Below, piece by piece: positions 3,732 to 47,134 of a DNA stretch of 64,000 bases (positions are counted from its first letter, which is position 1; every line of letters starts with the position of its first letter). The position numbers and the translations under genes are program-made. The notes below the pieces were generated by a model. It did not search any database. It saw nothing but the letters and a program-made list of their open reading frames with translations, and was not told the DNA's origin. This DNA comes from a virus (taxonomy: Duplodnaviria > Caudoviricetes): positions 1-64,000 of IMG/VR virus record IMGVR_UViG_3300033074_001783; one strand, written 5' to 3'.

Positions 3732-3806
3732 GCCGCTGTACGCCGCCTGCCTTCTAAGCAGGAGAAAGCTAATGGACACATGTAGGTTCAACCCCTATCA
3801 GCGGTG
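3732..3806 (+). tRNA. D-armless tRNA-Arg(TCT)-like RNA with long variable region
   Basis: GCCGCTG/CAGCGGT acceptor; CCTGC-CT-TCT-AA-GCAGG; T arm GTAGG-TTCAACC-CCTAT; only 7 nt between acceptor and anticodon stems. Confidence 0.7.
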
Positions 3807-5631: not shown

Positions 5632-5714
5632 GGCTCTCTGGCGTAATGGCAGCCGCGCTAGACTCAAAATCTGGTCCCCGAAAGGGGGTGTGGGTTCAAT
5701 TCCCACGGGAGCCA
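5632..5714 (+). tRNA. tRNA-Leu(CAA), long variable arm
   Basis: GGCTCTC/GGGAGCC; CTAGA-CT-CAA-AA-TCTGG; variable arm CCCC-GAAA-GGGG. Confidence 0.92.
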
Positions 5715-12067: not shown

Positions 12068-12096
12068 TTCACAATTCCAATTCTGACTGCTACTAT
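12068..12096 (+). promoter_or_regulatory. Early promoter giving a leaderless mRNA that starts at ATG 12103
   Basis: TTCACA-N17-TACTAT-N6-ATG, same geometry as at least 7 other promoters in the window. Confidence 0.75.
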
Positions 12097-12102
12097 AGTC
12101 AC

Positions 12103-13113
12103 ATGGACAACATCATCAATCACGAAATGTAGGGCTTAGTTGACAATGGCTGCGAAGACACAGAGTGCAAACTCTACGTGATCACGCACCAAGATCTAAC
12201 TCTCCAGTACGCCATTCCTCAAACAATGCACGCTGCTCTTGAGTTTGGGATTGCATTCCCAGACGAGTATCAAAAGTGGCATTCGCGTTCCAATTCCATT
12301 ATCACACTTGCAACAAAAAACGAAAGAGCTCTTTGGGAGTTTTCAAGACTCCTTGAGAAAAAAGGACTTAAATATGTTCCTTTTTACGAACCTGATGTTG
12401 GAATGGCTCTTACAGCTTTAGCCATTGTTCCAAATCCAATGGTGAAAAGAGTTTGTATGGGCATTCCTCTGTGTGGGAAATACGTCAATCCTTTGGCTCA
12501 AGAGAGACTTGAAAAAACTTGGGATTTGGTGGAAAAGATGCAAACCTGTTATCAAACCAAAGGTATCAACATGCTTGAGCATGGTTTGATGGTGAAAGAC
12601 AGATTGTTTGATCTTCTTGAAACCATGAGAGATCCTTCAAGATCTTACAGGTATCAATGGCGTTTGCCAAGTTGGTTTCTTGAACACAGCGCCAAAATAT
12701 CTAAAGATATTTGCAGTGACTTTACTTTGGCGAAGTACACAACCATGCACGATTGTGGCAAACCAAAAGTGAGAATTGAGAGAGAAGACGGCAAAGCGTC
12801 TTACCCCAACCACGCTGAAGCTAGCTACGAAGAGTGGCTGTCTATCTCGGATGACGCAGAGATTGCAGAGCTCATTCGTAGAGACATGCAGATTCACTTG
12901 CTCAAATCAGAAGAAATTCCTGAGTTCTGTCGCAACAAGAAAACTGCTCTTTCTTTGTTGATTTCTGGATTGGCCGAGATCCATGCAAATGAGCAACTTT
13001 TTGGAGGGTTTAATTCCGATGGATTCAAAATCAAATGGAAACAGATTGATAAAAAAGGAAAAGGAATTTGTCAATTTCTGTTTGGTTGGGTCAAAGTGAC
13101 CAGTGGAACCTAA
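12103..13113 (+). CDS. Peptidyl-tRNA hydrolase 2 (Pth2)-like domain fused to an HD phosphohydrolase; in-frame TAG at codon 10 (12130-12132)
   Basis: Pth2-like KLYVITHQDL..QTMHAALEF..FYEPD..LTALA; HD motifs EHG..MHDCGKP..NHA; the frame from ATG 12103 is continuous apart from one TAG. Confidence 0.8.
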
Positions 13114-13130: not shown

Positions 13131-14207
13131 ATGGTATCAAAACTGCTTACTAGAAATGGTTTTAGAGATGCGTGCCTGAAGAGAGATGGGTACAAATGCG
13201 TGAATTGTGGGGCACCAGCGACCTACGATAAAAATGGGGAGGTTGACAACCTTGACATTCATCACATCATAGAAAGAAGGTTGTTTACAGCGAAAGCAGA
13301 GTTTGGAGGCTATTTCGTTGACAACGGCGCCTGCGTTTGCGAGCCATGTCACATACTTGCAGAACAAACACTCTTGTCTTGCGATGCTCTCAGAGAGAAA
13401 TGTGGAATCAAAACCATTGTTCTTCCGTTGCATCTGTACCATGACCAAGAGTATGACAAATGGGGCAATCCTGTTCTCCCAAACGGAACTAGATTGAAGG
13501 GAGACCTGTTTTATGATCTCTCTGTTCAAAAGGTTCTTGAACCTGTTCTCCATCTGTTTTCTGAGAAGGTCAAATATCCCAGAACTCCTCATCTTCCTTG
13601 GAGTCCGGGTGTTGGCAAAGATGACAGGGTGCTTGATTCCACAGATTGCTTCGTTGGAAAAGAAATTGTCATCACAGAGAAGATGGATGGAGAGTGTACA
13701 ACCATCGGAAGAACTTATTCTCATGCAAGATCTGTAGAGAGTGGATCTCATCCATCAAGAGATTGGATCAAAGCTTTGCAAGGTCGCATTGGTTACGACA
13801 TTCCAGAAGGTTGGAGACTTTGTGGAGAGAACTTGTTTGCCAAACATTCTCTTGGATATAACAACCTCAAAGACTTCTTTCTTCTCTTTTCCATTTGGAA
13901 CGAGAACAACATTTGTTTGAGTTGGGATGAAACAGTTGAATGGGCTTCTCTATTGAATCTGCACATTGTCCCAACGATATACAGAGGAGTCTGGGACGAA
14001 AAGAATACAAGGAATCTGAAGATTGATTCTAACGTGCAAGAAGGTTACGTTGTGCGGCTGGCTGATTCATTCAGCTACGGTGACTTCAGAAAGAGTGTAG
14101 CGAAGTGGGTGAGACCTTCCCATGTGACGACACACGGCGGTTGGATGAGATCTGAACTTATACCAAACAAGCTGATAGTTACCCAAGATGTTGAAAGAAA
14201 TAATTGA
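13131..14207 (+). CDS. HNH nuclease domain fused to an ATP-dependent RNA ligase (Rnl2-type)
   Basis: N-term RDGYKCVNCG..HHI..NG..CEPCH; ligase motifs KYPRTPHL, TEKMDG, GENL, EGYVVR, AKWVR. Confidence 0.85.
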   Translation: MVSKLLTRNGFRDACLKRDGYKCVNCGAPATYDKNGEVDNLDIHHIIERRLFTAKAEFGGYFVDNGACVCEPCHILAEQTLLSCDALREKCGIKTIVLPLHLYHDQEYDKWGNPVLPNGTRLKGDLFYDLSVQKVLEPVLHLFSEKVKYPRTPHLPWSPGVGKDDRVLDSTDCFVGKEIVITEKMDGECTTIGRTYSHARSVESGSHPSRDWIKALQGRIGYDIPEGWRLCGENLFAKHSLGYNNLKDFFLLFSIWNENNICLSWDETVEWASLLNLHIVPTIYRGVWDEKNTRNLKIDSNVQEGYVVRLADSFSYGDFRKSVAKWVRPSHVTTHGGWMRSELIPNKLIVTQDVERNN

Positions 14208-15020: not shown

Positions 15021-15338
15021 ATGCGCACCCCACAAGACGTGTTTTGCAACCGCTATCACAAGCACAGCAGCGACACTGGATTTCTCATCGGCGGCATGTA
15101 CGACGAAGATCTCACCTCTGTGATCGCTTCTCTACACGATGACAGGCATTGGGACAACAACGGTAAGTCCGTTGAGAACGACTTCTTGTGCGACGATGAT
15201 GGAGTTCACGTTCGCGGAGAGTTTCCTGTCTACATCCGTCAAGAAGTAATGATCGGAGATTACCAGTTTTTTCAGTTCTACGTCTCAGATCGCGATGGCT
15301 ATTGGTGGACAGAAGCCAAGAATGTGAGGATTGCATGA
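15021..15338 (+). CDS. Hypothetical protein
   Basis: ORF; leaderless promoter TTCAAA-N17-TAGGAT-N6-ATG. Confidence 0.7.
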   Translation: MRTPQDVFCNRYHKHSSDTGFLIGGMYDEDLTSVIASLHDDRHWDNNGKSVENDFLCDDDGVHVRGEFPVYIRQEVMIGDYQFFQFYVSDRDGYWWTEAKNVRIA

Positions 15339-15955
15339 CCACGGAAAACAAAGAAACGTTCATGGCAAGGCTTAGGCCGATGCTTGCTCCAAGCGAGCTT
15401 CGTAAAATTGAACTTGCCTACATCCTAACCAAAGACGGACACAGGAGCCAGACAAGAAAACAGTTGGGACTTGATGGTCAACCAATCAGGTATTTTGAAC
15501 ATCCAAGGCGCGTCGCAATTGTTGTCATGGATGAGTGCAAAATCTACTCCCCAAGCTTCATCATCACTGCGCTTGGACATGATCTTCTTGAAGACAGTGA
15601 AATGACGCCAGAACTTCTTGAGGATTGTTTTGGCGCGGAAGTGACGAAGTGGATCAAGTCTCTGTCCAAAGTGCCAAAAGAAGGTTACTACGAACGACTG
15701 AAGGCATATGGCTCTTGGCAAGCAATGTTTATCAAACTTTGCGACAGACTGGATAACCTTCGTGACATGGAAGGTTGCGACGATGGTTTCAAACGCAAGC
15801 AGTGCCTTGAAACCATGCAATCCATCTACCCGCTTGCCGGAGAACTTCTGGTTAAATGCCCAGACAAGGATGTTCAGCGGACAGCGGAAGCTTTGGCTGT
15901 AAAGATTAGAATTAGGGTTGAAGAAATCTTTCAAAGCTTGTCAGCGGGATCATAA
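15335..15955 (+). CDS. RelA/SpoT-type HD hydrolase (small alarmone hydrolase, Mesh1-like)
   Basis: H..QTRK, YFEHP, GHDLLED, IKLCDRLDNL. Confidence 0.85.
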   Translation: MTTENKETFMARLRPMLAPSELRKIELAYILTKDGHRSQTRKQLGLDGQPIRYFEHPRRVAIVVMDECKIYSPSFIITALGHDLLEDSEMTPELLEDCFGAEVTKWIKSLSKVPKEGYYERLKAYGSWQAMFIKLCDRLDNLRDMEGCDDGFKRKQCLETMQSIYPLAGELLVKCPDKDVQRTAEALAVKIRIRVEEIFQSLSAGS

Positions 15956-15967
15956 AATAGAACCATC

Positions 15968-16357
15968 ATGCACATGCGTTATAAACCTTGGTATTTGCTG
16001 ATGTTGTCCTACTACTCAAGGGCAAATCAACACCTTCTTGAAAACGCCAAGCATGTTGCGTGCTACCGATGTAAACGTCTTGTGTCTCTTGAAGAGGTTG
16101 TGTATGGAACAGAAGACACAGGACCAAAAGGATTCTTTAATGGGGCAAAAACAGGAATCCACAAAACCTGTGGATTTGATACTTTGTTGCCATCGGAAGT
16201 GTTTTACAAACGTCTTCCTTTGAAAAACCAAGATTTCTTGGTTTCAATGCACAATCTCTTCTTCCAAGAAGAGAAAAAGTTTTCTTTTGGGCGAATGATC
16301 GCTCCGATGTATCCTCACAATCCTTACCGTAAAACTCTGATTCACCCGGTTCCATAG
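15968..16357 (+). CDS. Hypothetical protein; its TAG stop lies inside the suppressor tRNA
   Basis: ORF with CYRC and HKTC. Confidence 0.6.
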   Translation: MHMRYKPWYLLMLSYYSRANQHLLENAKHVACYRCKRLVSLEEVVYGTEDTGPKGFFNGAKTGIHKTCGFDTLLPSEVFYKRLPLKNQDFLVSMHNLFFQEEKKFSFGRMIAPMYPHNPYRKTLIHPVP

Positions 16358-16423
16358 CTCAGTGGCTAGAGCGCTGGATTCTAAACCCAAGGGTCGCGGG
16401 TTCAAATCCCGCTGGAACCGCCA
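16348..16423 (+). tRNA. Amber suppressor tRNA (anticodon CTA)
   Basis: Exact 76-nt cloverleaf: GGTTCCA/TGGAACC, GCTC/GAGC, loop TT-CTA-AA (anticodon 16381-16383), GCGGG-TTCAAAT-CCCGC, GCCA; anticodon stem has two mismatches. Confidence 0.85.
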
Positions 16424-16425
16424 TT

Positions 16426-16722
16426 ATGACCAACAATGAAGAACTTACAAAAGTAAAAATAAAACTGTATTTTGCAAGAGGAATGACGATTAGCACAATT
16501 GCCAATCGTTTAAATAGACCGCGCTCCTATGTTGTGAATGTTTTGGGCATCACTTCTATAAGCAACAGGGCAGGTTTTGCTTTTTCTGATATACCCGCAA
16601 GCGACAAACCAAACAAAGCGAATGAACTGTGTGAACTTGGATATACCAGAAGTGAAACTGCACGTATGTTAGGAGTAACGGACAATGTAGTTTCAAAATG
16701 GATAACGGACAAAAGATTCTAA
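16426..16722 (+). CDS. Tandem HTH DNA-binding protein
   Basis: Two HTH signatures: GMTISTIANRLNRPRSYV and GYTRSETARMLGVTDNVVSKW. Confidence 0.75.
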   Translation: MTNNEELTKVKIKLYFARGMTISTIANRLNRPRSYVVNVLGITSISNRAGFAFSDIPASDKPNKANELCELGYTRSETARMLGVTDNVVSKWITDKRF

Positions 16723-20990: not shown

Positions 20991-21455
20991 ATGAGTTATT
21001 ATCATTCAGACAGAGATGACATCGTTTCAAAGTTGGTTACAATTGTCATAGTCCTGCTGATCGTTCTGGGGCTTGGTGCAATCGGTATGTGTGTGAAATG
21101 CGCAGATACCGCGTCTGAACCAGTTAAACAAGCTGCACAAATTGTGGAGCGAACAATAAACGCAGACAACGTGATTTACAACTACGAGTGGTTCCACCAG
21201 CAATACCAAAATGCCCAAAACTATCAACGGCAAATTGATCAGAAAGAACAGCGCGTAACAGAAATGCAACGTTCCCTTCCGCAAGATCGTACTCAGTGGA
21301 CCAGAGAAGATCGGGCGGAACTGTTTCAGCTTCAAACAGAACTCAGTGGTCTCAGGGCCATGCGTTCAACTGTGGTCTCAGATTACAACGCCCATGCAAG
21401 CATGGCAAATCGCAGCATTTTCCTCGGCGGCTCTCTTCCACCTTCACTACAATAG
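20991..21455 (+). CDS. Membrane-anchored coiled-coil protein
   Basis: N-terminal TM followed by a Q/E-rich coiled coil. Confidence 0.75.
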   Translation: MSYYHSDRDDIVSKLVTIVIVLLIVLGLGAIGMCVKCADTASEPVKQAAQIVERTINADNVIYNYEWFHQQYQNAQNYQRQIDQKEQRVTEMQRSLPQDRTQWTREDRAELFQLQTELSGLRAMRSTVVSDYNAHASMANRSIFLGGSLPPSLQ

Positions 21456-21494
21456 TTCCAAACCCCATTTCAAAACAGGTACAATAACATCATC

Positions 21495-22091
21495 ATGAGA
21501 ACATCAATCTACATTTCTACCATTCTTGCCGGTGCTCTGTTTTTTGGAGCGTGCGAACCAGACGACACTCACCAACCAAATACAGGTGCTGCAACCGTTA
21601 CTGAAATGGAGCAAACAGAAGCGAACCAACAAAGACTTGTTCGCCAAGTTCCTCCTCCTCACCTTTCTGACTCACAAGAGAGAAGGAATCTTGTGCGCCG
21701 TCTTGAAGCGCTAAATGATCCCAACCGTCTTTCTTGGGTTTATCTTCTTGCTTCAACCGGACAGCCAATCTTCTACGGTCCTGTGCGTGGTAAAGTGAGT
21801 TCTCTCAATTCAATGCTGACAACACCAGATCAGGTGATTACAACCGATTGTCCCGGTTGTGGTGGGCAATACACCCGCACACAACAACACGTTGTAGCAA
21901 GTCCTGACTTTGATGGCTCTTACGGAGATAACCCCCAAGGTATTTTCTGGTTTGATCCAAGCGGCGGATATCATGAGTGGAATGGACTTTATGCTCTGAG
22001 CGACCAACCATTCCGTCTGTCACAACCTCCTATTCTCATTGCGAACGACAGTCCTATAACTCCAACGCCTAGCAATACGGCTGTACGATGA
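21495..22091 (+). CDS. Lipoprotein
   Basis: Signal peptide ending FFGAC. Confidence 0.75.
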   Translation: MRTSIYISTILAGALFFGACEPDDTHQPNTGAATVTEMEQTEANQQRLVRQVPPPHLSDSQERRNLVRRLEALNDPNRLSWVYLLASTGQPIFYGPVRGKVSSLNSMLTTPDQVITTDCPGCGGQYTRTQQHVVASPDFDGSYGDNPQGIFWFDPSGGYHEWNGLYALSDQPFRLSQPPILIANDSPITPTPSNTAVR

Positions 22092-22426
22092 AAACCGTTA
22101 TTGTTTTGATCGTGGCAATCTTCGTCTCTTTGGTCACGGGCGCTTCTTACAATGGCTGCGTGAATGCAAGCAACCGCGAAGGCGCTTACACAATCCGGGT
22201 TCAGGCAAAAGCACAACAATGGGCAAGTCAAAACTCTGTGTTTGCTGTAAACAACCTTTCAATTGTTTGTACTCCAAGAGATTTTGGAAATCGTTGGCCG
22301 AGTGATTACCATCGCTGTTCTGCAATAAGCAACATTCAGATTCCGGGTAGAGGAATTGTTCCGTTGCATCTACTTTGCAACATTCAGGGGTGTACAATCA
22401 ACCCCATTTCCAACCAAAACTACTGA
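22088..22426 (+). CDS. Exported Cys-containing protein
   Basis: Signal peptide MKTVIVLIVAIFVSL. Confidence 0.6.
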   Translation: MKTVIVLIVAIFVSLVTGASYNGCVNASNREGAYTIRVQAKAQQWASQNSVFAVNNLSIVCTPRDFGNRWPSDYHRCSAISNIQIPGRGIVPLHLLCNIQGCTINPISNQNY

Positions 22427-22428
22427 TC

Positions 22429-22977
22429 ATGGCAATTCGCACAAATAACGAACTTGAAGAAGCACTGTTTAAAAAACTGTATCAAAACTCTCTTGAAGTA
22501 GATCCCGACGCAGATCTAAAAACAAACATTAGAAACGTTTATGGTGATTTACCACAAAGCAAAATTGAAGAGTTGGTAAAACTGTGTGAGAAGGGTTGGA
22601 GTTCTCCTCCTCCAACACCCCAAGACAGTGATCTTCCTGAAATGTTAATCAATCCAACACATTTTAGACCAAGGGCACAAGTGGCAAACTATGATCTTAA
22701 TTTGAAAAGGCTTGCGGCAGAAGAACTAGCCAGACACAAGTTGCGTGAAGTTTCTACAAAAAAACCACTTGTAACTTCTTTGGTTCCCAAAAGATATGTT
22801 GCCAAGTCATCTGAAACGAACGTTCTGTTAGAAACTGATGATTTTCTTGAAGCGGTTGCCATTGCAGCCAAGTCTTACGACGAAACAAATCACAAGATTG
22901 CGGTAGCGGTCTTTGATCAAGAGACAAAAAGTAACATTGTTTCTTTCGCCTCCATAACAACAAGATCTCAGCAATAG
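22429..22977 (+). CDS. Hypothetical protein
   Basis: ORF from ATG 22429. Confidence 0.65.
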   Translation: MAIRTNNELEEALFKKLYQNSLEVDPDADLKTNIRNVYGDLPQSKIEELVKLCEKGWSSPPPTPQDSDLPEMLINPTHFRPRAQVANYDLNLKRLAAEELARHKLREVSTKKPLVTSLVPKRYVAKSSETNVLLETDDFLEAVAIAAKSYDETNHKIAVAVFDQETKSNIVSFASITTRSQQ

Positions 22978-23013
22978 TTTCACACTCTCTCTGTTGTGTA
23001 GCAGAGTAGATTC

Positions 23014-24219
23014 ATGCAACTCCAAGTACAAGAATATCTTCGCACTCACTCCCTCAAAGATCTTGAGCGTGAACATGGAATCTATGCTGGTTTTGGTCCA
23101 ACCAAAACTGGCTACAAATTCTCGCTCAACTACGATCAGATTGAATCCAAGGATTCAGATCCATTTACGCTTGAATGTCGCGGTTTGGTCCTTGCCCGCA
23201 AAGATGGAGCCCAAATCAACCCAGAAGAGCCACTTGGTGAGACCGTCGCTCTTGCTGTTCCAATGAAGCGTTTCTTCAACTACGGGCAGAAGCCTGCTGC
23301 TCAAATTGACTGGTCAACCGCCAAGGTCATGGAAAAACTTGATGGCACTTTGGGAATTCTGTATTTTGATGATTTCGCTGATGAGTGGTGTGTGGCAACT
23401 CGTGCAGCGCCCGAAGCTGATTATTGCATTGACGGTTTTGGTGACTACACCTTCCGTCGTCTGTTTGAGCAATGCCTGAACGAAACACTTCAGCTTGCCA
23501 GCACAATGTCGGATGCTGAGTGTTTTCAGCAGTTCACCAATGAACTTTGTACGGATTACACCTACTGTTTTGAAATCACAAGTCCAGTGAATCAAGTGGT
23601 AGTTCGTTATCAAGAAAACCGACTTACTCTTCTGGCAGTTGTTGATCGCACAACCACCAAAGAGGAGCGTTTGTTTAACGGTACACTGAATGGGGTTCCA
23701 ACCGTTGTATTTCACCCTCTTGGAACCCTTGATGACGTTCTGTCGTTTGTGGCAAGTCGTTCTGCTTGTGACTACGAGGGTGTTGTGGTTATTGACAGCA
23801 ACTTCAACCGTGTGAAGGTGAAGAATCCCGGTTATCTTGCTCTTGGAAACATCAAGAGTTCTGCGGTTGCATCTCCTCGTCGGCTTCTTGAACTTGTACT
23901 TTCTGGCAAAGATGACGATGCAATTGGCCTTGTCACTCCCTTGGTACAAGAAAAGCTTGTCTCAACAAAAAAAGGTTATGCTATCCTGTGCCGCTCTGTT
24001 GATGATTGGTATGCCAAAACCATGTCAACCATTCACGGAGACGATTCACGTAAGCAACTGGCCTTGGTTTGTCAGGCAGATAAAATCATGATTGGGCCTG
24101 TCATGGCAATGTATCAAGGTAAAGCATCTTCTTTCCAAGGATGGGTTCTCAACAATCGTCAACAAGATGGAAGTTGGGCGGATTCCTTTTTGGACAATTT
24201 GCTATCGTCCATTTCATGA
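23014..24219 (+). CDS. RNA ligase, T4 Rnl1-like
   Basis: ECRGL, RFFNY, EKLDG, FEITSP, EGVVV, RVKVK; leaderless promoter. Confidence 0.85.
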   Translation: MQLQVQEYLRTHSLKDLEREHGIYAGFGPTKTGYKFSLNYDQIESKDSDPFTLECRGLVLARKDGAQINPEEPLGETVALAVPMKRFFNYGQKPAAQIDWSTAKVMEKLDGTLGILYFDDFADEWCVATRAAPEADYCIDGFGDYTFRRLFEQCLNETLQLASTMSDAECFQQFTNELCTDYTYCFEITSPVNQVVVRYQENRLTLLAVVDRTTTKEERLFNGTLNGVPTVVFHPLGTLDDVLSFVASRSACDYEGVVVIDSNFNRVKVKNPGYLALGNIKSSAVASPRRLLELVLSGKDDDAIGLVTPLVQEKLVSTKKGYAILCRSVDDWYAKTMSTIHGDDSRKQLALVCQADKIMIGPVMAMYQGKASSFQGWVLNNRQQDGSWADSFLDNLLSSIS

Positions 24220-34216: not shown

Positions 34217-34279
34217 CGTTTGCACCTCTTATTTTATCTGTCAGTAATAGTTAGCCGCTTCGCTTTGCGAATACCTTGG

Positions 34280-35467
34280 CTATCTTGATTTGTTTAATGA
34301 AAGCAAAAACGAATCAAGCGTTTCAATATCAGGAGCCGTATAAATTGTCTCCCCCTGCCTTCTTGGGGTGTTGATCAACTGAATATATTTAATTTGTTTT
34401 TCACCTGTGATTGGATCTGTTATTTCTTTTGCGATACTTCGTTCACTCAAACTGGTGGGTCGTTGTTTTGTTTCTTCGTCCGGTTGTATCTCTGTCAGAT
34501 CAAATGATTTTTTGGTTTTATTCAGTGATTTTTCATTTTGTACATCTGCTCCTTCAAAAACATCAAAAGATATTTGTGGCGCAGAAATATAACTTTTAAC
34601 TGCATGTGCTGTACCGGGAGCGTCTGTTGCAATAATGTAAGCTTTGACTTTTAAAGTAAAAGTGTAACGAACAATTCTTTTGTCTTCTGTATAGTCTTCT
34701 TCGTTACCATCGTTGTTGAAAGTTTCGTCAACATCTGCGATAAACCAATATCCTTTTTCAGTTGTAACAACAAATCCGCGCCTTTGTGGCAAAAAGTTGG
34801 CAAACATTGTTTCAATCATGTAGTTCATGTGACGACGATGCAAAGTCCAAAAAACTATTTCATAATTTGCCGTATAGTATTGTGGAGAAGGAATGGTGAT
34901 TATCTCAAAAATGTTGTTTGCTATGTCTGGTTGTAACAACATGCCTTGTCTTGCAGCCAAAGAAGGTAAATCATTTTCTCTCCTTGAGTTATCGCCATCG
35001 CTTGTGTTGACAAGAGAAAACTTGTTAAGAAAATTTTGATATTTTTTGTCTTTGGAATTCAAACGTCTCTTAACCACAATGTTGCCAGTCATTTGGTTAA
35101 TCCCTCTTCCAGTTATATCTTCGTCCGTTTGCTCTATGCCTGTTCTACGAATTGCAATTGCAGGAAGAACCAAAGCACCGTTTGTGTCTTTTATTGGTCT
35201 CAAACGTTTTACAGAGGCAAATCTTTCCCCTCCAGCAAATACAACAAATGGTTTGTTTAACTGTAGAAAACTCTGTTTGCCTTTTATTTCTCTGGGTGTG
35301 TAGCCGATTTCTTTTTCAAACAGATTAAACACAGCTTCGTCAACATCAGTCAGATCACAAGAAGGAACGTGGTAATCACTTACCAAGCCTTCTGTGTTGC
35401 CATATCCCGTTGGCATGTGGGATTGAGTTGAGGTTGGATCTTGTTGGATGGTTTGTCGTGTAGTCAC
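34280..35467 (-). CDS. Tail completion/terminator-like protein (T4 gp15-like)
   Basis: Position upstream of the sheaths; GERF, LPAIAIRR, RIVRYTFTLKVKAY. Confidence 0.6.
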   Translation of the reverse strand: MTTRQTIQQDPTSTQSHMPTGYGNTEGLVSDYHVPSCDLTDVDEAVFNLFEKEIGYTPREIKGKQSFLQLNKPFVVFAGGERFASVKRLRPIKDTNGALVLPAIAIRRTGIEQTDEDITGRGINQMTGNIVVKRRLNSKDKKYQNFLNKFSLVNTSDGDNSRRENDLPSLAARQGMLLQPDIANNIFEIITIPSPQYYTANYEIVFWTLHRRHMNYMIETMFANFLPQRRGFVVTTEKGYWFIADVDETFNNDGNEEDYTEDKRIVRYTFTLKVKAYIIATDAPGTAHAVKSYISAPQISFDVFEGADVQNEKSLNKTKKSFDLTEIQPDEETKQRPTSLSERSIAKEITDPITGEKQIKYIQLINTPRRQGETIYTAPDIETLDSFLLSLNKSR

Positions 35468-35476
35468 AACAAGTAA

Positions 35477-36265
35477 CTAGCCATTTACAAAATGGTCGTG
35501 GATCGCTTTCAACCAATCCGCAGATTGTGGATTTAGTTCAGCTTGAAGAAGATAACCAGATAGAACAGAAAGTAAAATACGAATTGCAGGATAAATGTTG
35601 GCAACCAAAACCATTTTATAAAACAAGCTTTCACACTTCGTTCGCGCGTTGTCCTTGTTGCCAAGATAATCTTGATCCCCAAGAAAAGTTTTGCTTGATT
35701 GGAATCCATGATCCCACAAAGTCTTGTAGATTGACAAAGAAACCACGTCAGTTGGAATCCATGAAACAGCTTTGTTGTTTACAGTTTTCAAAACAGAACA
35801 AGCTAAATTTATTGCATGTTCTAGTTGCACTGCTTTAAAATTGATTGCGATTGGTTTGAATAGTTCAAGTTTTTTATCTAGGTTTTGGGCGGCTCCAAGA
35901 GAAAAACTTGCAACAGTTGGAAACGTTAAAGACTCTTGCTGAAAAGCAACTGCTGTTTGTTTTCTGGCAAACTCTTGGTACTCGGTTAGAGCAGCTTTGG
36001 ACAAAGACACGAGATTGAAAGAGTCCAAATAGGATTGATCAAAAGATATTTTTTCTTTTGTTTTTGTTTCAACCGTTTGTTTTATTTCTTGAACCAACTC
36101 CAGTCTCACGCCAAGTCGGTCATAAAGATTGTTTACTTTGTTAGCAATCAATCTAGCATAGGTTGAAGATTGAAGTTCCGTGGGAGGTGCTTCCCCATAA
36201 TTCAAAACGCTGTAGATATCTTCTTGCAAAGTTTTGTGTACAAGTTTTTCAATGAGTTTTTGCAT
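35477..36265 (-). CDS. Putative virion protein
   Basis: Leader MQKLIEKLVHKTLQE. Confidence 0.6.
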   Translation of the reverse strand: MQKLIEKLVHKTLQEDIYSVLNYGEAPPTELQSSTYARLIANKVNNLYDRLGVRLELVQEIKQTVETKTKEKISFDQSYLDSFNLVSLSKAALTEYQEFARKQTAVAFQQESLTFPTVASFSLGAAQNLDKKLELFKPIAINFKAVQLEHAINLACSVLKTVNNKAVSWIPTDVVSLSIYKTLWDHGFQSSKTFLGDQDYLGNKDNARTKCESLFYKMVLVANIYPAIRILLSVLSGYLLQAELNPQSADWLKAIHDHFVNG

Positions 36266-36266
36266 T

Positions 36267-36980
36267 TCAGCCACCACCAAATTTTTCTGGATAAAATTGT
36301 TTGAGGACATTTAGCGTTGTCCCATGATCCAACAACACCACTCGTCCGTCTGCCGTTTTACCCCAATGTTTGATCACCATTACATCCAAAGGAGCAAAAC
36401 TTTCGTCTCCCGAATGAATGGCTTTCATGAATTCTTGAAACGCATTCCATTGTTGGAATTTTTTCATTTCTGCGAAGACTTGCTTAAACCTTTGACTCTT
36501 GGCGACCACCTGTTGAAAAGAAAGTTGATTCTGTACAGTTTCTATTACCACACTTTTCAAAACACCAAACATAAACCCAGAAACGTGTGCGAATTGGCTT
36601 TCATCTGTGAATTGACCAACCAACTCTTCTGTGATCCAAGAGCCATCTTCTGCTGTTTCAAATACTTTTGTTACCAAATTGGGATAAAGAGAAGCATGTT
36701 TTTGTTCTGTTTTGTTTTGTGCTATACCGGCCTGCAAATTATTCACTTTGGCCAGTTTCAAAACTTTGGTACTTGACAAAAGAAACACAACCCTTGAAGT
36801 TCCATCTTGTTCGTTTGAAATCATTTTAAGTGACTTCTTGGCATAGTCGTATTTCTCTTGTTGAGTTGGCAATGATTTAAAAATGTTCCATTGAAACGTT
36901 TCGGATCTTATCTTCTCTTTTAAAACTGATTGAAATTCTTCTTGGATAATGGTTTCAATCAAAAACTCAATCATTGACAT
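36267..36980 (-). CDS. Protein-kinase-like protein, probably virion-packaged
   Basis: GTSRVVF, KVLKLAK, QNKTE, D..HWG..VLLDHG; leader IEFLIETIIQEE; late promoter. Confidence 0.7.
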   Translation of the reverse strand: MSMIEFLIETIIQEEFQSVLKEKIRSETFQWNIFKSLPTQQEKYDYAKKSLKMISNEQDGTSRVVFLLSSTKVLKLAKVNNLQAGIAQNKTEQKHASLYPNLVTKVFETAEDGSWITEELVGQFTDESQFAHVSGFMFGVLKSVVIETVQNQLSFQQVVAKSQRFKQVFAEMKKFQQWNAFQEFMKAIHSGDESFAPLDVMVIKHWGKTADGRVVLLDHGTTLNVLKQFYPEKFGGG

Positions 36981-43048: not shown

Positions 43049-43069
43049 TACTGACCTATGTCAAAGGCC

Positions 43070-45013
43070 CTATATGATGCCCATGTCAAGGATGGTGATT
43101 GTTGCGTAGAAGTCCGCACGAACCATCTTCTTGCCGTAGCGAGTCATCACACCCTTGCGAGGTGTAAAGTCCTCTTGGGCATAGATGACAGGGGTGAGGA
43201 TCAGAGGCACGTAAGGTGCGTAGATGTAACCTGTCTCAAGGAAGGTGTTACCCTTCAAACCGATGAGGATTTTGTTGGTTGGGAAGTAAGGATCCTTGTA
43301 AACCACATAGCGGTTGTTAAGAGTTCCTGTTGCTTCTGCACCGACTGTCATTCCTTCTTTTGTCTGACCATCAGCGTCAATCTTGTAATTGGCTCTGTAG
43401 GCTGTTGTGTGTTCAAGAATTGTACACACGTCAGGAGATGTGATCAGGAAGTTACCTGCTCCGCGCAATGTCTTCTTGTGGATGACGTTTGCAGCGTCGC
43501 TGATGGTCTCCAAAAGTGTCTGATACCACTGTTGAATGTCACCTGTGAATGCAGGGCCGGGTGAGAGTGTTCCCTGACGAGTTCCCTCTGTACCTGTCCA
43601 CTTGTTCACGAAACGACCGGGAGCTCTTGACCAGAAGTAGTTCGCAGCAGCCGCTTGGGTAAGCAAGTCGCTAAGAATCTCGCGGTCAATGTCCAAAGTA
43701 ACCATTTCGCTAAGGATGTTTGTCAGTTCTGCCTCAATGTCAATTGAGTAGAAGGCTGTCAAATCCTGTGCCATTTCAGGCGACCAGCGTGCTCTCAACT
43801 TGCGTGAAGTTGCTGTTACGGCCACTGATTCAATCTTGATGTCCACTTCAGGAATCTTGGGACTTGAGTCCAAAGCGAAGTCAGTTTCAAATGAAGGAAT
43901 CATCAGTGTGCTTCCGTCGTTGTTGACTGACAACGCATCTGAAATCACAGTTGAAGCTGTGAGAGCATGAGTTGTCGCATCACCAAGTGTAGGAGCGTTT
44001 CCTGTGTTGCTCAAGGCAACCAAGAACTGAACGTGTGATCCACCAAGAGCATCGGGTGTAAACAAACCTGTGATTGGGTTAAACGAACCACGCTTTGTCT
44101 TGGTACGGAGGTTCATCACCCCTGTGCCACCTTGATAGTTTGTACCCCAAGTTGTTGCACCACCGGGAGTTCCACCAAGACCAGTAATGGCGATTGCGTG
44201 GAGTGTCTCAAGGTCTGCACCAGCGATTTTGCTTGTGAGCTCTGAAGCTGACATGTGCACGAAGCAGAAGTCCAACACGTTGTTCGCAAGATCGTTTTCA
44301 ATTTGTGAATCAAAATCAGCGAAGCGTGCGTTATAGCCAACGAAATCTGCTGTGCTTTGCACTGTGGCGGTTGTTCCGGTTGTCCACACTGAACCTGATG
44401 ACCAGAAACCAACTGAGTCGGTTGGGGCAATCAAGTTAAGGGCTTGCTTGTGTACCTTTGTGAAGGTTGAACCACCAAGACCGTAGTGCCCACCTGTTGC
44501 CAATGAGCTTGAACGAATGTTCGCGCCTGTTGGAAGGTTGTACACTGACTGGCCACGAGTATATGTCTCATTGGCAGAACTTGTTGAAAGTGAAAGACCA
44601 GCGTCTCCACCAACGTTTGAACCATAAGTGTAGTCCAGATAGAAGAGCAGACCCGCAGGCAAGCTCATAGGCTGTACTGAAACCACTTCGTTCGCAATAA
44701 GGCCCGCGAAGACCTTACGCACGATTGGGAATGCGACGTTTGTGAAACCGGCAATTTGACCAGAAGAAGCCAGACCGGCTCCACCTGTTGAAATGCCGTT
44801 TGCCTCTTGAAGAACTTCACGAGCGCTTGGCCCGCGAAGAAGTTCTACCGCTTGGTTTTCAAGCAGTTTTGCCATCTTGTCTCGGTTGATTCCTGAAAGT
44901 CCTTGCAAAAGACCTGTTTCGGCCCACTTAGCCGTCATGCGGGCTGTGTCATGACCGAGCCCGCGTCGGCTCACGCCTTCCGCAAGTTGGTTTAGTGTGA
45001 ATTGTCTCGCCAT
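43070..45013 (-). CDS. gp23: Major capsid protein, T4 gp23-like
   Basis: LLENQ, VSVQPMSLPAGLLFYLD, RKLRARWSPEMAQDL, IDREIL, GYIYAPYVP, MTRYG. Confidence 0.95.
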   Translation of the reverse strand: MARQFTLNQLAEGVSRRGLGHDTARMTAKWAETGLLQGLSGINRDKMAKLLENQAVELLRGPSAREVLQEANGISTGGAGLASSGQIAGFTNVAFPIVRKVFAGLIANEVVSVQPMSLPAGLLFYLDYTYGSNVGGDAGLSLSTSSANETYTRGQSVYNLPTGANIRSSSLATGGHYGLGGSTFTKVHKQALNLIAPTDSVGFWSSGSVWTTGTTATVQSTADFVGYNARFADFDSQIENDLANNVLDFCFVHMSASELTSKIAGADLETLHAIAITGLGGTPGGATTWGTNYQGGTGVMNLRTKTKRGSFNPITGLFTPDALGGSHVQFLVALSNTGNAPTLGDATTHALTASTVISDALSVNNDGSTLMIPSFETDFALDSSPKIPEVDIKIESVAVTATSRKLRARWSPEMAQDLTAFYSIDIEAELTNILSEMVTLDIDREILSDLLTQAAAANYFWSRAPGRFVNKWTGTEGTRQGTLSPGPAFTGDIQQWYQTLLETISDAANVIHKKTLRGAGNFLITSPDVCTILEHTTAYRANYKIDADGQTKEGMTVGAEATGTLNNRYVVYKDPYFPTNKILIGLKGNTFLETGYIYAPYVPLILTPVIYAQEDFTPRKGVMTRYGKKMVRADFYATITILDMGII

Positions 45014-45049
45014 TTTAGTTGTGCTCCCTATATTTCTTCTTGTTTCTAA

Positions 45050-47134
45050 CTAGACTTTGCTAGCGCTAATTCCTGCCAAACGCATCCAACGTTCTCTTGT
45101 TGGAGCGTATTCTTTATTTTCTGTTACGTTTGTGCTCTCATTCAAAGGAGCGCTTCCTGATTTCACTGTTGTAGAAGATGAACCAGAGGTTGTGACCTTC
45201 TTTGGTGAACGGTGCTCGTCAAGAACTTTCTTTACACGAGAATAAACTTCTTTCGCTTCCGCGAATGTTGAAGCCTCATCCATGTAACCAGTGATTTTCT
45301 TTTTCTGGTTTACAGACAAAGACTCAAGAGCAAGTAGTTTGTTCAAGTACAATGACTTGGCTGCAAGCAGTTTCATCTCTTGCAATTCTCTTTTTGTGTT
45401 GCGAAGTTGAACAGATTCCTTCACAACTGGTTTGCGTGATTCTGCAACAGGAGGTGAAATCTCTTCTTCCTCTTCATCATCGGCCAAAGGAGAACCATCG
45501 TCGTTGGTGATTTCATATTCCTCGTCACCATCTGGTTCACTGTGAGCTCCACCAAAATCATCGCCCTCTTCGTCAGAAGGTAAAGATGAAGCCATCGCGG
45601 GTTCAACAGGGTTGCTAACGCTTACGCCGCCGTTGCTGTCAACCTTGATGGTAACAGTAACACCACCATCACTACCTGCACCAAGCTCTTCTGCTTGCAT
45701 ACCGCACTCTTTGAGAGCTTTTGCGGCTTCTTTCAATGCCTTCAGTTTTGCAGCAAACTTTTTCTTTGCTTCCATTACAGCAACCGCGTTGGTGTTTACG
45801 GGTTTGCCGGGTGTCACTTTGTCCATGCCATCTGTCACTTTGTCGCCAAGGATTTCAGCGGCTTCGCCCATTGCTGGCTCTGACTCTTCGCTGTCCCCAA
45901 ACATTTCGCGAAGTTCTGCTTCAAGTTGCATGGCTTCTATGTCTTCTTCAAGATACCCAGAAGCGCCACCAACTTTAAGTGAATCTTCTTTGCCGGGATC
46001 TTTAATGTTTGATTCAGATGCTTTCATCGCGTGTTTGCCAGCGGCATTCTCGGTGTCAAGCTCTGCATCACCTTTTGGTTTCTCGGTACTATCACCGAAA
46101 CCAGCGCTACCTTTTGTTGGAGGTGCATTTTCAAAAAGACCTCTTGCAAATTTTCTCAAGTTTTCGCTACTCATTTTGTTCGTGTCCTTGTTCTTCGGAT
46201 ACGGATAACTATTGGTGTTTTCCGTAGATTCCTGAAGTTGTCTGTATAAACCTTCAAGACGATTTTCTTGAAGGCGTCCAAGTCGTTGAGGCACAAGTTT
46301 ATTTTCAACAAGTTTTTCCAATTTCCCCAACAAACCAAAGAGGTGTTGTTCCATTGCAAATTTTTGCATTTTTGTTGGTTTGGAGTTCAACAAAATATGA
46401 CTCTGTGTTCGTTTGACGGATTCCTTGAAATCTTCGTATGTAATTGCCTCTGTTTGTGTGTCTTCTTCCCCAAAAGGAGGCATGGAAGCATCTGTGTCTT
46501 CCCCTGTGGCCACAACGGGTGCAGGGGTTTCAGATGGGAATCCTCCAATTGGAGTTGTTGGTTCAGTTGGTTCTCCAACCCCCACGCCACCCGTCAAGAC
46601 AGGTTCTTGCCCTGTTGCACTCATTTGTGTCCAAAGGTCATCAAGAGAAACTACAATTTGTCCCGAAGCGTCTGGCAATGGAACGCTGCCAAGGCTTGCT
46701 GATGGAACACTGATTGGAGCTCCGGGGCCTTCAATGGAGGGGGCGCCAATGTTGGCAGGCATACCAGCCTCGGGCGCAACTGGACCGGGAGCAGGAGGCA
46801 CCGCTGGTGGTGGAGCGGGAGGCATTGCTTCTGGTGTGGGCACCGCGGAAGGGGTAGGAGCAGGCGCAGGAGGAGGAACAGCGGGTGGAGAACCCGGAGG
46901 TGCAGCAGCAGGAGGAGGAGCCGAGGCATCTCCTGTCACGTCCGCAAAAGGATCTTCTTCCTCCTGCAAATCATTCATCCCTTCTGTGAGATTGCTAAGG
47001 CTTTGGTTCAATTCTTTTTCAATCAAAGGTGTTATGGCTTCAATGATTGCATTTTTCGCTTGATGAAACGCTGCTTCCTTGTAGCGACCAACTTCTACAA
47101 GTGCTTCATCGTAAAGAGGACTGGAGTTATTCAT
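45050..47134 (-). CDS. Prohead core/scaffold protein (gp22-like) with a Pro/Ala-rich insertion
   Basis: Immediately upstream of MCP; acidic coiled coil; AKSLYLNKL; C-term RWMRLAGI. Confidence 0.75.
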   Translation of the reverse strand: MNNSSPLYDEALVEVGRYKEAAFHQAKNAIIEAITPLIEKELNQSLSNLTEGMNDLQEEEDPFADVTGDASAPPPAAAPPGSPPAVPPPAPAPTPSAVPTPEAMPPAPPPAVPPAPGPVAPEAGMPANIGAPSIEGPGAPISVPSASLGSVPLPDASGQIVVSLDDLWTQMSATGQEPVLTGGVGVGEPTEPTTPIGGFPSETPAPVVATGEDTDASMPPFGEEDTQTEAITYEDFKESVKRTQSHILLNSKPTKMQKFAMEQHLFGLLGKLEKLVENKLVPQRLGRLQENRLEGLYRQLQESTENTNSYPYPKNKDTNKMSSENLRKFARGLFENAPPTKGSAGFGDSTEKPKGDAELDTENAAGKHAMKASESNIKDPGKEDSLKVGGASGYLEEDIEAMQLEAELREMFGDSEESEPAMGEAAEILGDKVTDGMDKVTPGKPVNTNAVAVMEAKKKFAAKLKALKEAAKALKECGMQAEELGAGSDGGVTVTIKVDSNGGVSVSNPVEPAMASSLPSDEEGDDFGGAHSEPDGDEEYEITNDDGSPLADDEEEEEISPPVAESRKPVVKESVQLRNTKRELQEMKLLAAKSLYLNKLLALESLSVNQKKKITGYMDEASTFAEAKEVYSRVKKVLDEHRSPKKVTTSGSSSTTVKSGSAPLNESTNVTENKEYAPTRERWMRLAGISASKV

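Follow-up and report, generated by a model that had tools for sequence, protein, structure and literature searches.

A phage amber suppressor tRNA and its probable target, an in-frame UAG near the start of a Pth2-HD gene in a phage with the standard code

Suppressor transfer RNAs (tRNAs) encoded by phages are as such already known. The closest described systems are the recoded phages (crAss-like and Lak phages; code 15, in which TAG stands for Gln), where a phage tRNA with the anticodon CUA, hereafter tRNA(CUA), overrides UAG in a host using the standard code and where many and mostly late genes contain in-frame TAG codons, coding density rises under code 15 and recoding is proposed to control when phage genes are translated (10.1101/2021.08.26.457843; PMC9523058). 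Neither a hydrolase nor N-terminal TAG codons are mentioned in the preprint (10.1101/2021.08.26.457843). The present study deals with the first 64 kb (64,000 nucleotides, in the following the window) of the single 118,963-bp contig IMGVR_UViG_3300033074_001783 (41% G+C), the genome of a T4-like phage which likewise encodes a tRNA(CUA) (16348-16423, + strand) and, 3.2 kb upstream on the same strand, a gene for a fusion of a Pth2-like domain with an HD phosphohydrolase (Pth2-HD; 12103-13113, +). Unlike the recoded phages, the window phage uses the standard code and has one homology-supported in-frame TAG, which lies in the leader of this gene for an enzyme of the early region. We consider it likely that the tRNA(CUA) functions as an amber suppressor and that its evident task is the decoding of this one placed UAG, codon 10 of Pth2-HD. 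The combination of the standard code with a tRNA(CUA), and also the same HD-Pth2 gene, recurs in the Xanthomonas phage XacN1 (PMC5852040).

Regarding the stop codon itself, the arrangement of an ATG, a short run of codons and an in-frame TAG, here called a gate, is comparable to further systems. The gene prfB for release factor 2 (RF2) reportedly autoregulates through an early in-frame UGA, as Craigen and Caskey are said to have described in 1986. In both cases, a gene related to translation has an in-frame stop near its start, with the output set by competition at this stop; prfB differs by escaping through a +1 frameshift and by sensing its own product, whereas the gate of Pth2-HD would be escaped by means of a dedicated cognate tRNA. 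The bar minigenes of phage lambda are very short open reading frames (ORFs) which are functionally tied to Pth via peptidyl-tRNA drop-off. They resemble the gate in featuring a short ORF that ends in a stop and in the tie to Pth, whereas the short ORF of the gate is always in frame and continuous with the hydrolase gene, its stop is always TAG and the matching tRNA is encoded as well. The same design, an amber codon in the ORF plus a tRNA needed as a further input, was realized in synthetic amber gates of Escherichia coli (PMC7969014; PMC13276491); these are engineered, whereas the gate of Pth2-HD is natural and conserved. On the side of the tRNA, an unpaired 27:43 position, which the window tRNA shares, is linked to stop decoding in the Blastocrithidia-type tRNA-Trp with its anticodon stem of 4 bp, which keeps the near-cognate anticodon CCA, whereas the window tRNA carries the cognate CUA and additionally a mismatch at 31:39, resulting in three pairs (PMC13092985). 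For phages with the standard code, the full-text literature, searched without subscription journals, yielded no account of an amber gate on a single gene that is served by its own tRNA.

In the window, the frame starting at ATG 12103 reads MDNIINHEM-TAG-GLVDNGCEDTECKLYVITHQDL and stays open through 13113, resulting in 336 codons if read through the TAG, an assignment based on homologs, alignments and an AlphaFold2 model. The TAG (12130-12132, +) is codon 10 counted from ATG 12103 or codon 2 counted from ATG 12127, and is followed by G. The first ATG, GTG or TTG past the TAG is GTG 12178 (residue 26). In the AlphaFold2 model, which was built with 60 homologs and features a mean pLDDT of 93, the first strand comprises residues 24-29, so that a start at GTG 12178 would cut this strand. 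Residues 1-20 are disordered in the model, and since the TAG is located in this disordered and unconserved leader, the identity of the inserted residue may not matter. The best homologs of the protein are 47-58% identical. Among all cases of an ATG, a stop and an ORF in the window phage and in a relative with a whole genome of 203,914 bp, here referred to as G003, Pth2-HD is the only one without a usable start past the stop; further amber-gated genes were not detected in these two genomes, where the pattern of ATG, TAG and ORF is no commoner than that with TGA or TAA. Upstream of the gene, a match to the promoter consensus (TTCACA-17-TACTAT with TG before the second hexamer; 12068-12096, +) stands 6 nt before ATG 12103. 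This promoter-like site fits, and suggests, a leaderless mRNA beginning with AUG 12103, a start which makes the TAG codon 10. The motif TAnnnT occurs exactly 6 nt before the start codon of 12 other genes, compared to 1-5 genes at neighbouring offsets, which suggests a class of leaderless early promoters in the window phage. The genes preceded by TAnnnT (window positions 1234, 3164, 6614, 15021 and others) often share an upstream box resembling GAATCTTTCAAA.

Close relatives of the window phage with an orthologous tRNA were not recovered by megablast against the phage collection, by searches of IMG/VR with the exact tRNA pattern and a neighbouring protein, or by a single-protein scan of metagenomes. 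A profile scan of IMG/VR yielded 79 loci, the majority belonging to phages of 100-570 kb, in which the frame was followed upstream from each homology start; an ATG followed by an in-frame TAG within about 10 codons, without a start codon between TAG and domain, was counted as a gate. Nearly all Pth2 genes and stand-alone HD genes begin in this way, with an ATG, 1-9 codons, the TAG and no start before the conserved domain. The gate was found at 46 of 55 HD starts and 39 of 47 Pth2 starts after removal of redundancy (85 of 102 together), with the TAG at codon 2-11 and most commonly at codons 3, 4 and 5, compared to 26 of 1118 control ORFs of at least 150 codons from the same loci (2.3%). One of the 46 gated HD starts does have a start codon between TAG and domain. 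Many of the gate ATGs are preceded by GGAG at a distance of 6-9 nt and thus look like real starts. The stop of the gate is never TAA or TGA in this first set. A few HD or Pth2 starts (loci L123-L195) show ATG followed by TAA (two cases) or TGA (two cases), which may represent either chance or gates that serve other suppressors. The base following the TAG of 84 unique gates is A in 57, G in 18 and C in nine cases and never T, which makes up 28% of the DNA; the window gate with its TAG-G shares the purine found in most of the class. In classical context studies in E. coli, a purine after UAG reportedly favoured suppression and U termination. A second set of metagenome contigs, from which previously seen sequences were removed, likewise featured gates at 32 of 34 Pth2 and 26 of 36 HD starts, followed by A (45), G (11), T (1) and C (1).

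This distribution also bears on the idea that such phages represent an evolutionary intermediate toward TAG recoding, in which in-frame TAG codons just start to accumulate and the one in Pth2-HD is not special. An intermediate model of this kind was proposed for gut phages (10.1101/2021.08.26.457843), and TAG is indeed the rarest stop in the window phage (11%) and in G003 (5.5%). Nevertheless, random TAG codons would not hit codon 2-11 of the same two families in more than 100 diverged lineages, nor would they account for the near absence of T after the TAG (0 of 84 gates; 1 of 58 in the second set), and no other homology-supported in-frame TAG was detected in the window phage or G003. We regard such an intermediate state as very unlikely.

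The reading preferred here, a tRNA(CUA) dedicated to the gate, is further based on the joint occurrence of both elements. In the 79 loci, tRNA(CUA) is the commonest tRNA with 58 copies, compared to 32 each for Met and Thr(UGU), and among the new tRNAs of the second set it likewise ranks first (18 of 95). A CUA tRNA is located within 10 kb in 33 of 57 non-redundant gated loci, with a median distance of about 1 kb. The genome of G003, which also uses the standard code (93% coding; stops TAA 175, TGA 84 and TAG 15, i.e., 5.5%), carries its CUA tRNA 55 nt from Pth2-HD, and its other 16 tRNAs are more than 24 kb away on the opposite strand. Two different tRNA(CUA) genes are found at eight of the 17 two-gate loci with any CUA tRNA, compared to two of 16 single-gate loci including the window, which may be a lineage effect. 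The two-gate loci with two CUA tRNAs are L016, L017, L020, L023, L037, L076, L077 and L079.

Cultured phages feature the same module. The gene was found in 34 records of the phage collection, and all six records inspected contain the gate together with a tRNA(CUA). These belong to the Cronobacter phage GAP32 (gate MAQ-TAG, annotated Sup-tRNA nearby), the Tenacibaculum phage pT24 (MK-TAG, annotated tRNA-Sup), the Acinetobacter phage ME3 (MT-TAG, annotated tRNA with the anticodon CTA), the Salmonella phage Arash (ML-TAG), the Ralstonia phage RsoM2USA (two gates, tRNA(CUA) about 12 kb away) and XacN1. In Arash, a tRNA annotated as 'tRNA-Phe' (OQ632216.1, 49176-49247), to which ARAGORN assigns the anticodon CTA, and the gated gene for Pth2 are separated by about 1 kb. 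The HD-Pth2 gene of XacN1 (ORF364) begins with ATG AAG TAG behind AGGA and is annotated from an internal ATG.

The tRNA gene at 16348-16423, one of seven that ARAGORN called in the window, comprises 76 nt with the anticodon CTA at position 34 and is the sole CUA tRNA of the whole genome. It matches the Rfam model RF00005 in full length with 66.4 bits (cut-off 29; E 3e-12), the top score among six tRNA matches in the window. ARAGORN and Rfam agree in assigning CTA (16381-16383, +) to positions 34-36 of the tRNA, within a loop of 7 nt (TTCTAAA) that features U33 and a purine at position 37, as had been claimed by the initial annotation from canonical arm lengths. A register with TCT (Arg) as anticodon, which had been considered there as a competing fold, forms zero pairs and was chosen by neither program. 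The further description given there, i.e., mismatches at 27:43 and 31:39, otherwise perfect stems and G73, agrees with the Rfam alignment and the ARAGORN drawing. Accordingly, pairing is complete in the acceptor (7/7), D (4/4) and T (5/5) stems, the conserved core positions are present, the discriminator is G73 and the CCA is encoded in the gene. In the anticodon arm (16374-16390, +; stem 16374-16378/16386-16390, CTGGA/CCCAA), both positions are marked as non-standard pairs in the RF00005 alignment, with C27.A43 at the top and A31.C39 at the bottom, and three Watson-Crick pairs are formed at 28:42, 29:41 and 30:40. The isolated canonical arm features -1.0 kcal/mol; the anticodon stem of this tRNA is truly weak. 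For the unmodified transcript (16348-16420), the predicted optimum replaces the anticodon arm by a helix of 30-35 with 43-48, including three G.U pairs, and keeps the other three stems (-29.2 kcal/mol vs. -26.2 kcal/mol for the canonical cloverleaf), which would bury C34 and U35. ARAGORN labels CUA tRNAs as tRNA-Pyl by default. This identity, which is recognized by a small D loop, a 3-nt variable loop and a 6-bp anticodon stem, was rejected on the basis of the 8-nt D loop, the 5-nt variable loop and the anticodon stem of five positions with three pairs; pyl genes were not searched for. In terms of similarity, this tRNA comes closest to other CUA tRNAs and next to those for Arg, Val, Asn and Met; charging by GlnRS or LysRS, as suggested by the initial annotation, would be a mere possibility on sequence grounds. 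The TAG stop (16355-16357) of the upstream ORF 15974-16357 falls inside the tRNA gene at tRNA positions 8-10, and the next ORF begins at 16426, three bases past the CCA.

The weak anticodon stem turned out to be a trait of the class. In a comparison of 48 phage tRNA(CUA) with 414 other tRNAs of the same loci and with 96 tRNAs featuring A36, in which related sequences were treated as independent and are not entirely so, position 31:39 is neither a Watson-Crick nor a G.U pair in 25 of the 48 tRNA(CUA) (52%), vs. 13% of the other tRNAs and 13 of the 96 A36 tRNAs (odds ratio 6.9, p 2e-6 for the latter). Likewise, a mismatch at 27:43 occurs in 14 of the 48 (29%), vs. 10% of the other tRNAs and nine of the 96 A36 tRNAs (odds ratio 4.0, p 0.0035). 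The median energy of the anticodon arm amounts to -1.8 kcal/mol for tRNA(CUA), compared to -3.3 kcal/mol for the other tRNAs (p 7e-6) and also for the A36 tRNAs (p 1.5e-4). Both mismatches together, as in the window tRNA, are found in seven of the 48, and just two of them feature G-C or C-G at 31:39. The second contig set points in the same direction, with 5/18 CUA tRNAs vs. 8/77 others at 31:39 and 7/18 vs. 11/77 at 27:43. As the A36 controls read other codons beginning with U, the weak stem is not merely due to the reading of such codons. Since the mismatches at 31:39 and 27:43 are enriched across the class, they show neither decay nor low efficiency, and the initial annotation's conclusion of a low-efficiency suppressor was not sustained. 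Moreover, for a tRNA-Thr which has the anticodon CUA and naturally carries a G27-A43 mismatch, reading of UAG was better than for the variant with 5 bp (cited in PMC13092985), and positions 31:39 and 32:38 are described as setting the flexibility of the anticodon arm and the decoding efficiency (PMC11231383). The weak anticodon stem shared by this suppressor class probably tunes decoding.

A decayed and non-functional tRNA, with the two mismatches as marks of a pseudogene, would fit to the three remaining Watson-Crick pairs of the anticodon stem and to a predicted optimum other than the cloverleaf. Nevertheless, the gene features the best tRNA score in the window, with the other stems perfect and core positions and CCA in place, the same kinds of mismatches are enriched over the 48 CUA tRNAs, and the gene it would serve is intact with a confidently predicted fold; decay is considered extremely unlikely.

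Concerning ordinary genes, the genome uses the standard code. According to an ORF-based gene map, it contains 152 genes with 95% coding under table 11, which end in TGA (91), TAA (44) or TAG (17, i.e., 11%). Table 11 yields a coding density of 0.94, and a sense reading of TAG one of 0.95, a gain no larger than in controls with TGA or TAA as sense codon. Alignments of the about 50 proteins common to the window phage and G003 contain no in-frame stops in either direction, and internal stops are absent from the capsid genes of three relatives. The coding density, the conserved proteins and the 17 genes ending in TAG rule out genome-wide TAG recoding (code 15). The T4-type capsid gene (43070-45013, -), whose nearest relatives are the capsids of Microcystis and Flavobacterium phages and of uncultured huge phages, has TAG as its stop, with two further codons and a TGA behind it, in line with the trivial extension by readthrough that had been predicted.

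Ordinary TAG stops would be the targets if the tRNA acted as a general low-level suppressor which produces C-terminal extensions, the TAG of Pth2-HD being incidental. Among the 17 genes ending in TAG, three would gain long extensions, including gene 45050-47134. Nevertheless, the extensions following TAG match those following the other stops, with medians of 11 codons for TAG, 10 for TGA and 11.5 for TAA and with at least 30 codons in 3/17, 26/91 and 10/44 cases, respectively. Same-frame neighbours are no commoner after TAG than after TGA or TAA, and the frames merged by readthrough are separate genes by homology, for which reason the candidate fusions 20991-22091, 22375-24219, 34241-36310 and 43061-47134 were dismissed; the homology of the RNA ligase and of the capsid begins at downstream ATGs of the merged frames. 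The authors of XacN1, who reported two CUA tRNAs in each terminal repeat of this phage, likewise obtained no target by readthrough of all 18 TAG stops and found no homology beyond them (PMC5852040). Besides, a general suppressor leaves the gate at 83-84% of the Pth2 and HD starts unexplained, which altogether makes this explanation about as improbable as an intermediate of recoding. Backup second stops were looked for near the 17 TAG stops, and no sign of them was seen. The gene 45050-47134 (-) comprises 694 codons and ends in TAG in frame with the capsid gene 12 codons on; its readthrough would give a fusion of 1357 residues.

The survey of the sequence following TAG stops, which the initial annotation had suggested, gave no evident target among ordinary genes. 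Its idea of a selective readthrough which spares normal UAG stops was supported in one part: as the phage encodes a cognate amber tRNA and keeps TAG as a real stop, readthrough must be selective. Low efficiency as the means of this selectivity found no support.

The gated gene encodes an enzyme of two domains. In the AlphaFold2 model, the fold of the N-terminal domain matches that of archaeal Pth2 structures (3erj, with a target-normalised TM of 0.74), and the Pfam family PTH2 (PF01981) is matched with 20.6 bits, just below the cut-off of 23. For the modelled C-terminal domain, an alignment of more than 210 columns was obtained with the class II CCA-adding enzyme structures 3wfo-3wfs, which are also the sole sequence-profile hits of the enzyme in the PDB (E 0.0025), and the NCBIfam model of CCA enzymes gave a faint match; these links of the HD domain to class II CCA-adding enzymes appear weak yet concordant. 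Pfam HD families gave no match to the enzyme. The HD metal ligands H160, H216-D217, H237, D261 and H265 are invariant in 60 sequences. The order of Pth2 and HD domains varies among the fusions, and in other cases adjacent genes, gated separately, encode the two; this variable fusion speaks for a joint function of the domains. From sequence and model, the Pth2-like and HD enzyme probably acts on tRNA 3' ends.

Several observations weigh against a tRNA(CUA) serving the gate. The promoter-like site before ATG 12103 is no more frequent than in shuffled sequence, and for three homologs in protein databases the annotated start coincides with GTG 12178, so that a shortened protein made from this GTG is possible. 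A gap of 3.2 kb separates the window tRNA from the gated gene, no CUA tRNA is located within 10 kb in 24 of the 57 gated loci, and the contig UViG_3300032220_001761 (190,674 bp, 68% complete) features two gates (Pth2 and HD) and zero tRNAs according to ARAGORN and Rfam. Furthermore, 17 ordinary genes including that of the major capsid protein end in TAG, for which an efficient suppressor should be costly.

Under the preferred reading, we infer from the sequence that the tRNA(CUA) is expressed, becomes charged and decodes the gate codon. Transcription from the leaderless-type promoter would begin at AUG 12103, and the ribosome would synthesize MDNIINHEM before meeting UAG-G. Either the host release factor 1 (RF1) would then terminate and a peptide of nine residues would be released, or the phage tRNA(CUA) would insert an amino acid in the disordered leader, leading to the full two-domain enzyme. 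With these two outcomes at the UAG, the output of Pth2-HD should depend on the level of charged suppressor relative to RF1. Our preferred guess as to the purpose is that the gate makes the production of an enzyme for tRNA 3' ends dependent on the condition of the tRNA pool, be it as a feedback on the suppressor or by matching the enzyme to the side effects of suppression. A delay until the phage tRNAs have matured and a readout of suppressor vs. RF1 are other candidates. A closed loop, in which the suppressor's own 3' end or acylated tRNAs in general would be substrates of Pth2-HD and the synthesis of this enzyme past the UAG would serve as a readout of tRNA status, is judged to be rather unlikely, though less so than any of the competing roles of the tRNA.

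Among these, a main role directed against the host or its defence, with Pth2-HD limiting the collateral damage, is slightly less improbable than general suppression or an intermediate of recoding. The tRNA might, e.g., corrupt host proteins whose genes end in UAG or act together with the adjacent RNA-repair genes. The neighbourhood, with its genes for RNA repair and stress, includes an Rnl1-like RNA ligase (23014-24219), a SpoT/RelA-like HD hydrolase (15335-15955) and six other tRNAs, and amber suppression is reported to harm Salmonella (PMC11848022). Nevertheless, the CUA anticodon reads no sense codon, and hence this tRNA cannot stand in for one that the host has lost to cleavage by a defence nuclease; moreover, such a role is compatible with the gate and does not replace it.

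Further features of the window lie apart from the gate and its tRNA. The gene 13131-14207 shows a weak match of its N-terminal positions 11-75 to IscB. Bacterial tRNA-Leu normally features a long variable arm. Two tRNAs with leucine anticodons (1449-1522, CAG; 1633-1707, AAG) comprise 74-75 nt with a short variable arm, and their identity is doubtful judging by this architecture; the CAA tRNAs at 5632 and 5954 do have the long variable arm. An additional Rfam tRNA match (3732-3806, 35.5 bits) was not called by ARAGORN.

Suppressor tRNAs in standard-code phages are an acknowledged puzzle, for which the window locus and its more than 100 relatives supply a concrete and testable target, namely one or two enzymes, probably for tRNA ends, behind an early UAG. 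As the module is present in phages of Salmonella, Cronobacter, Acinetobacter, Xanthomonas and Ralstonia, it is directly accessible to such tests. For the annotation of phage genomes, it is of importance that gene callers routinely truncate or split gated genes. The weak 31:39 and 27:43 pairs shared by these tRNAs bear on the role of anticodon-arm flexibility in the decoding of stop codons. If the closed loop were true, it would represent a natural tRNA-based homeostat comparable to the autoregulation of RF2, with the flexible anticodon arm as part of the sensor tuning. Likewise, if the gate works as proposed, nature would already use the switch of amber codon and suppressor tRNA that synthetic biologists build.
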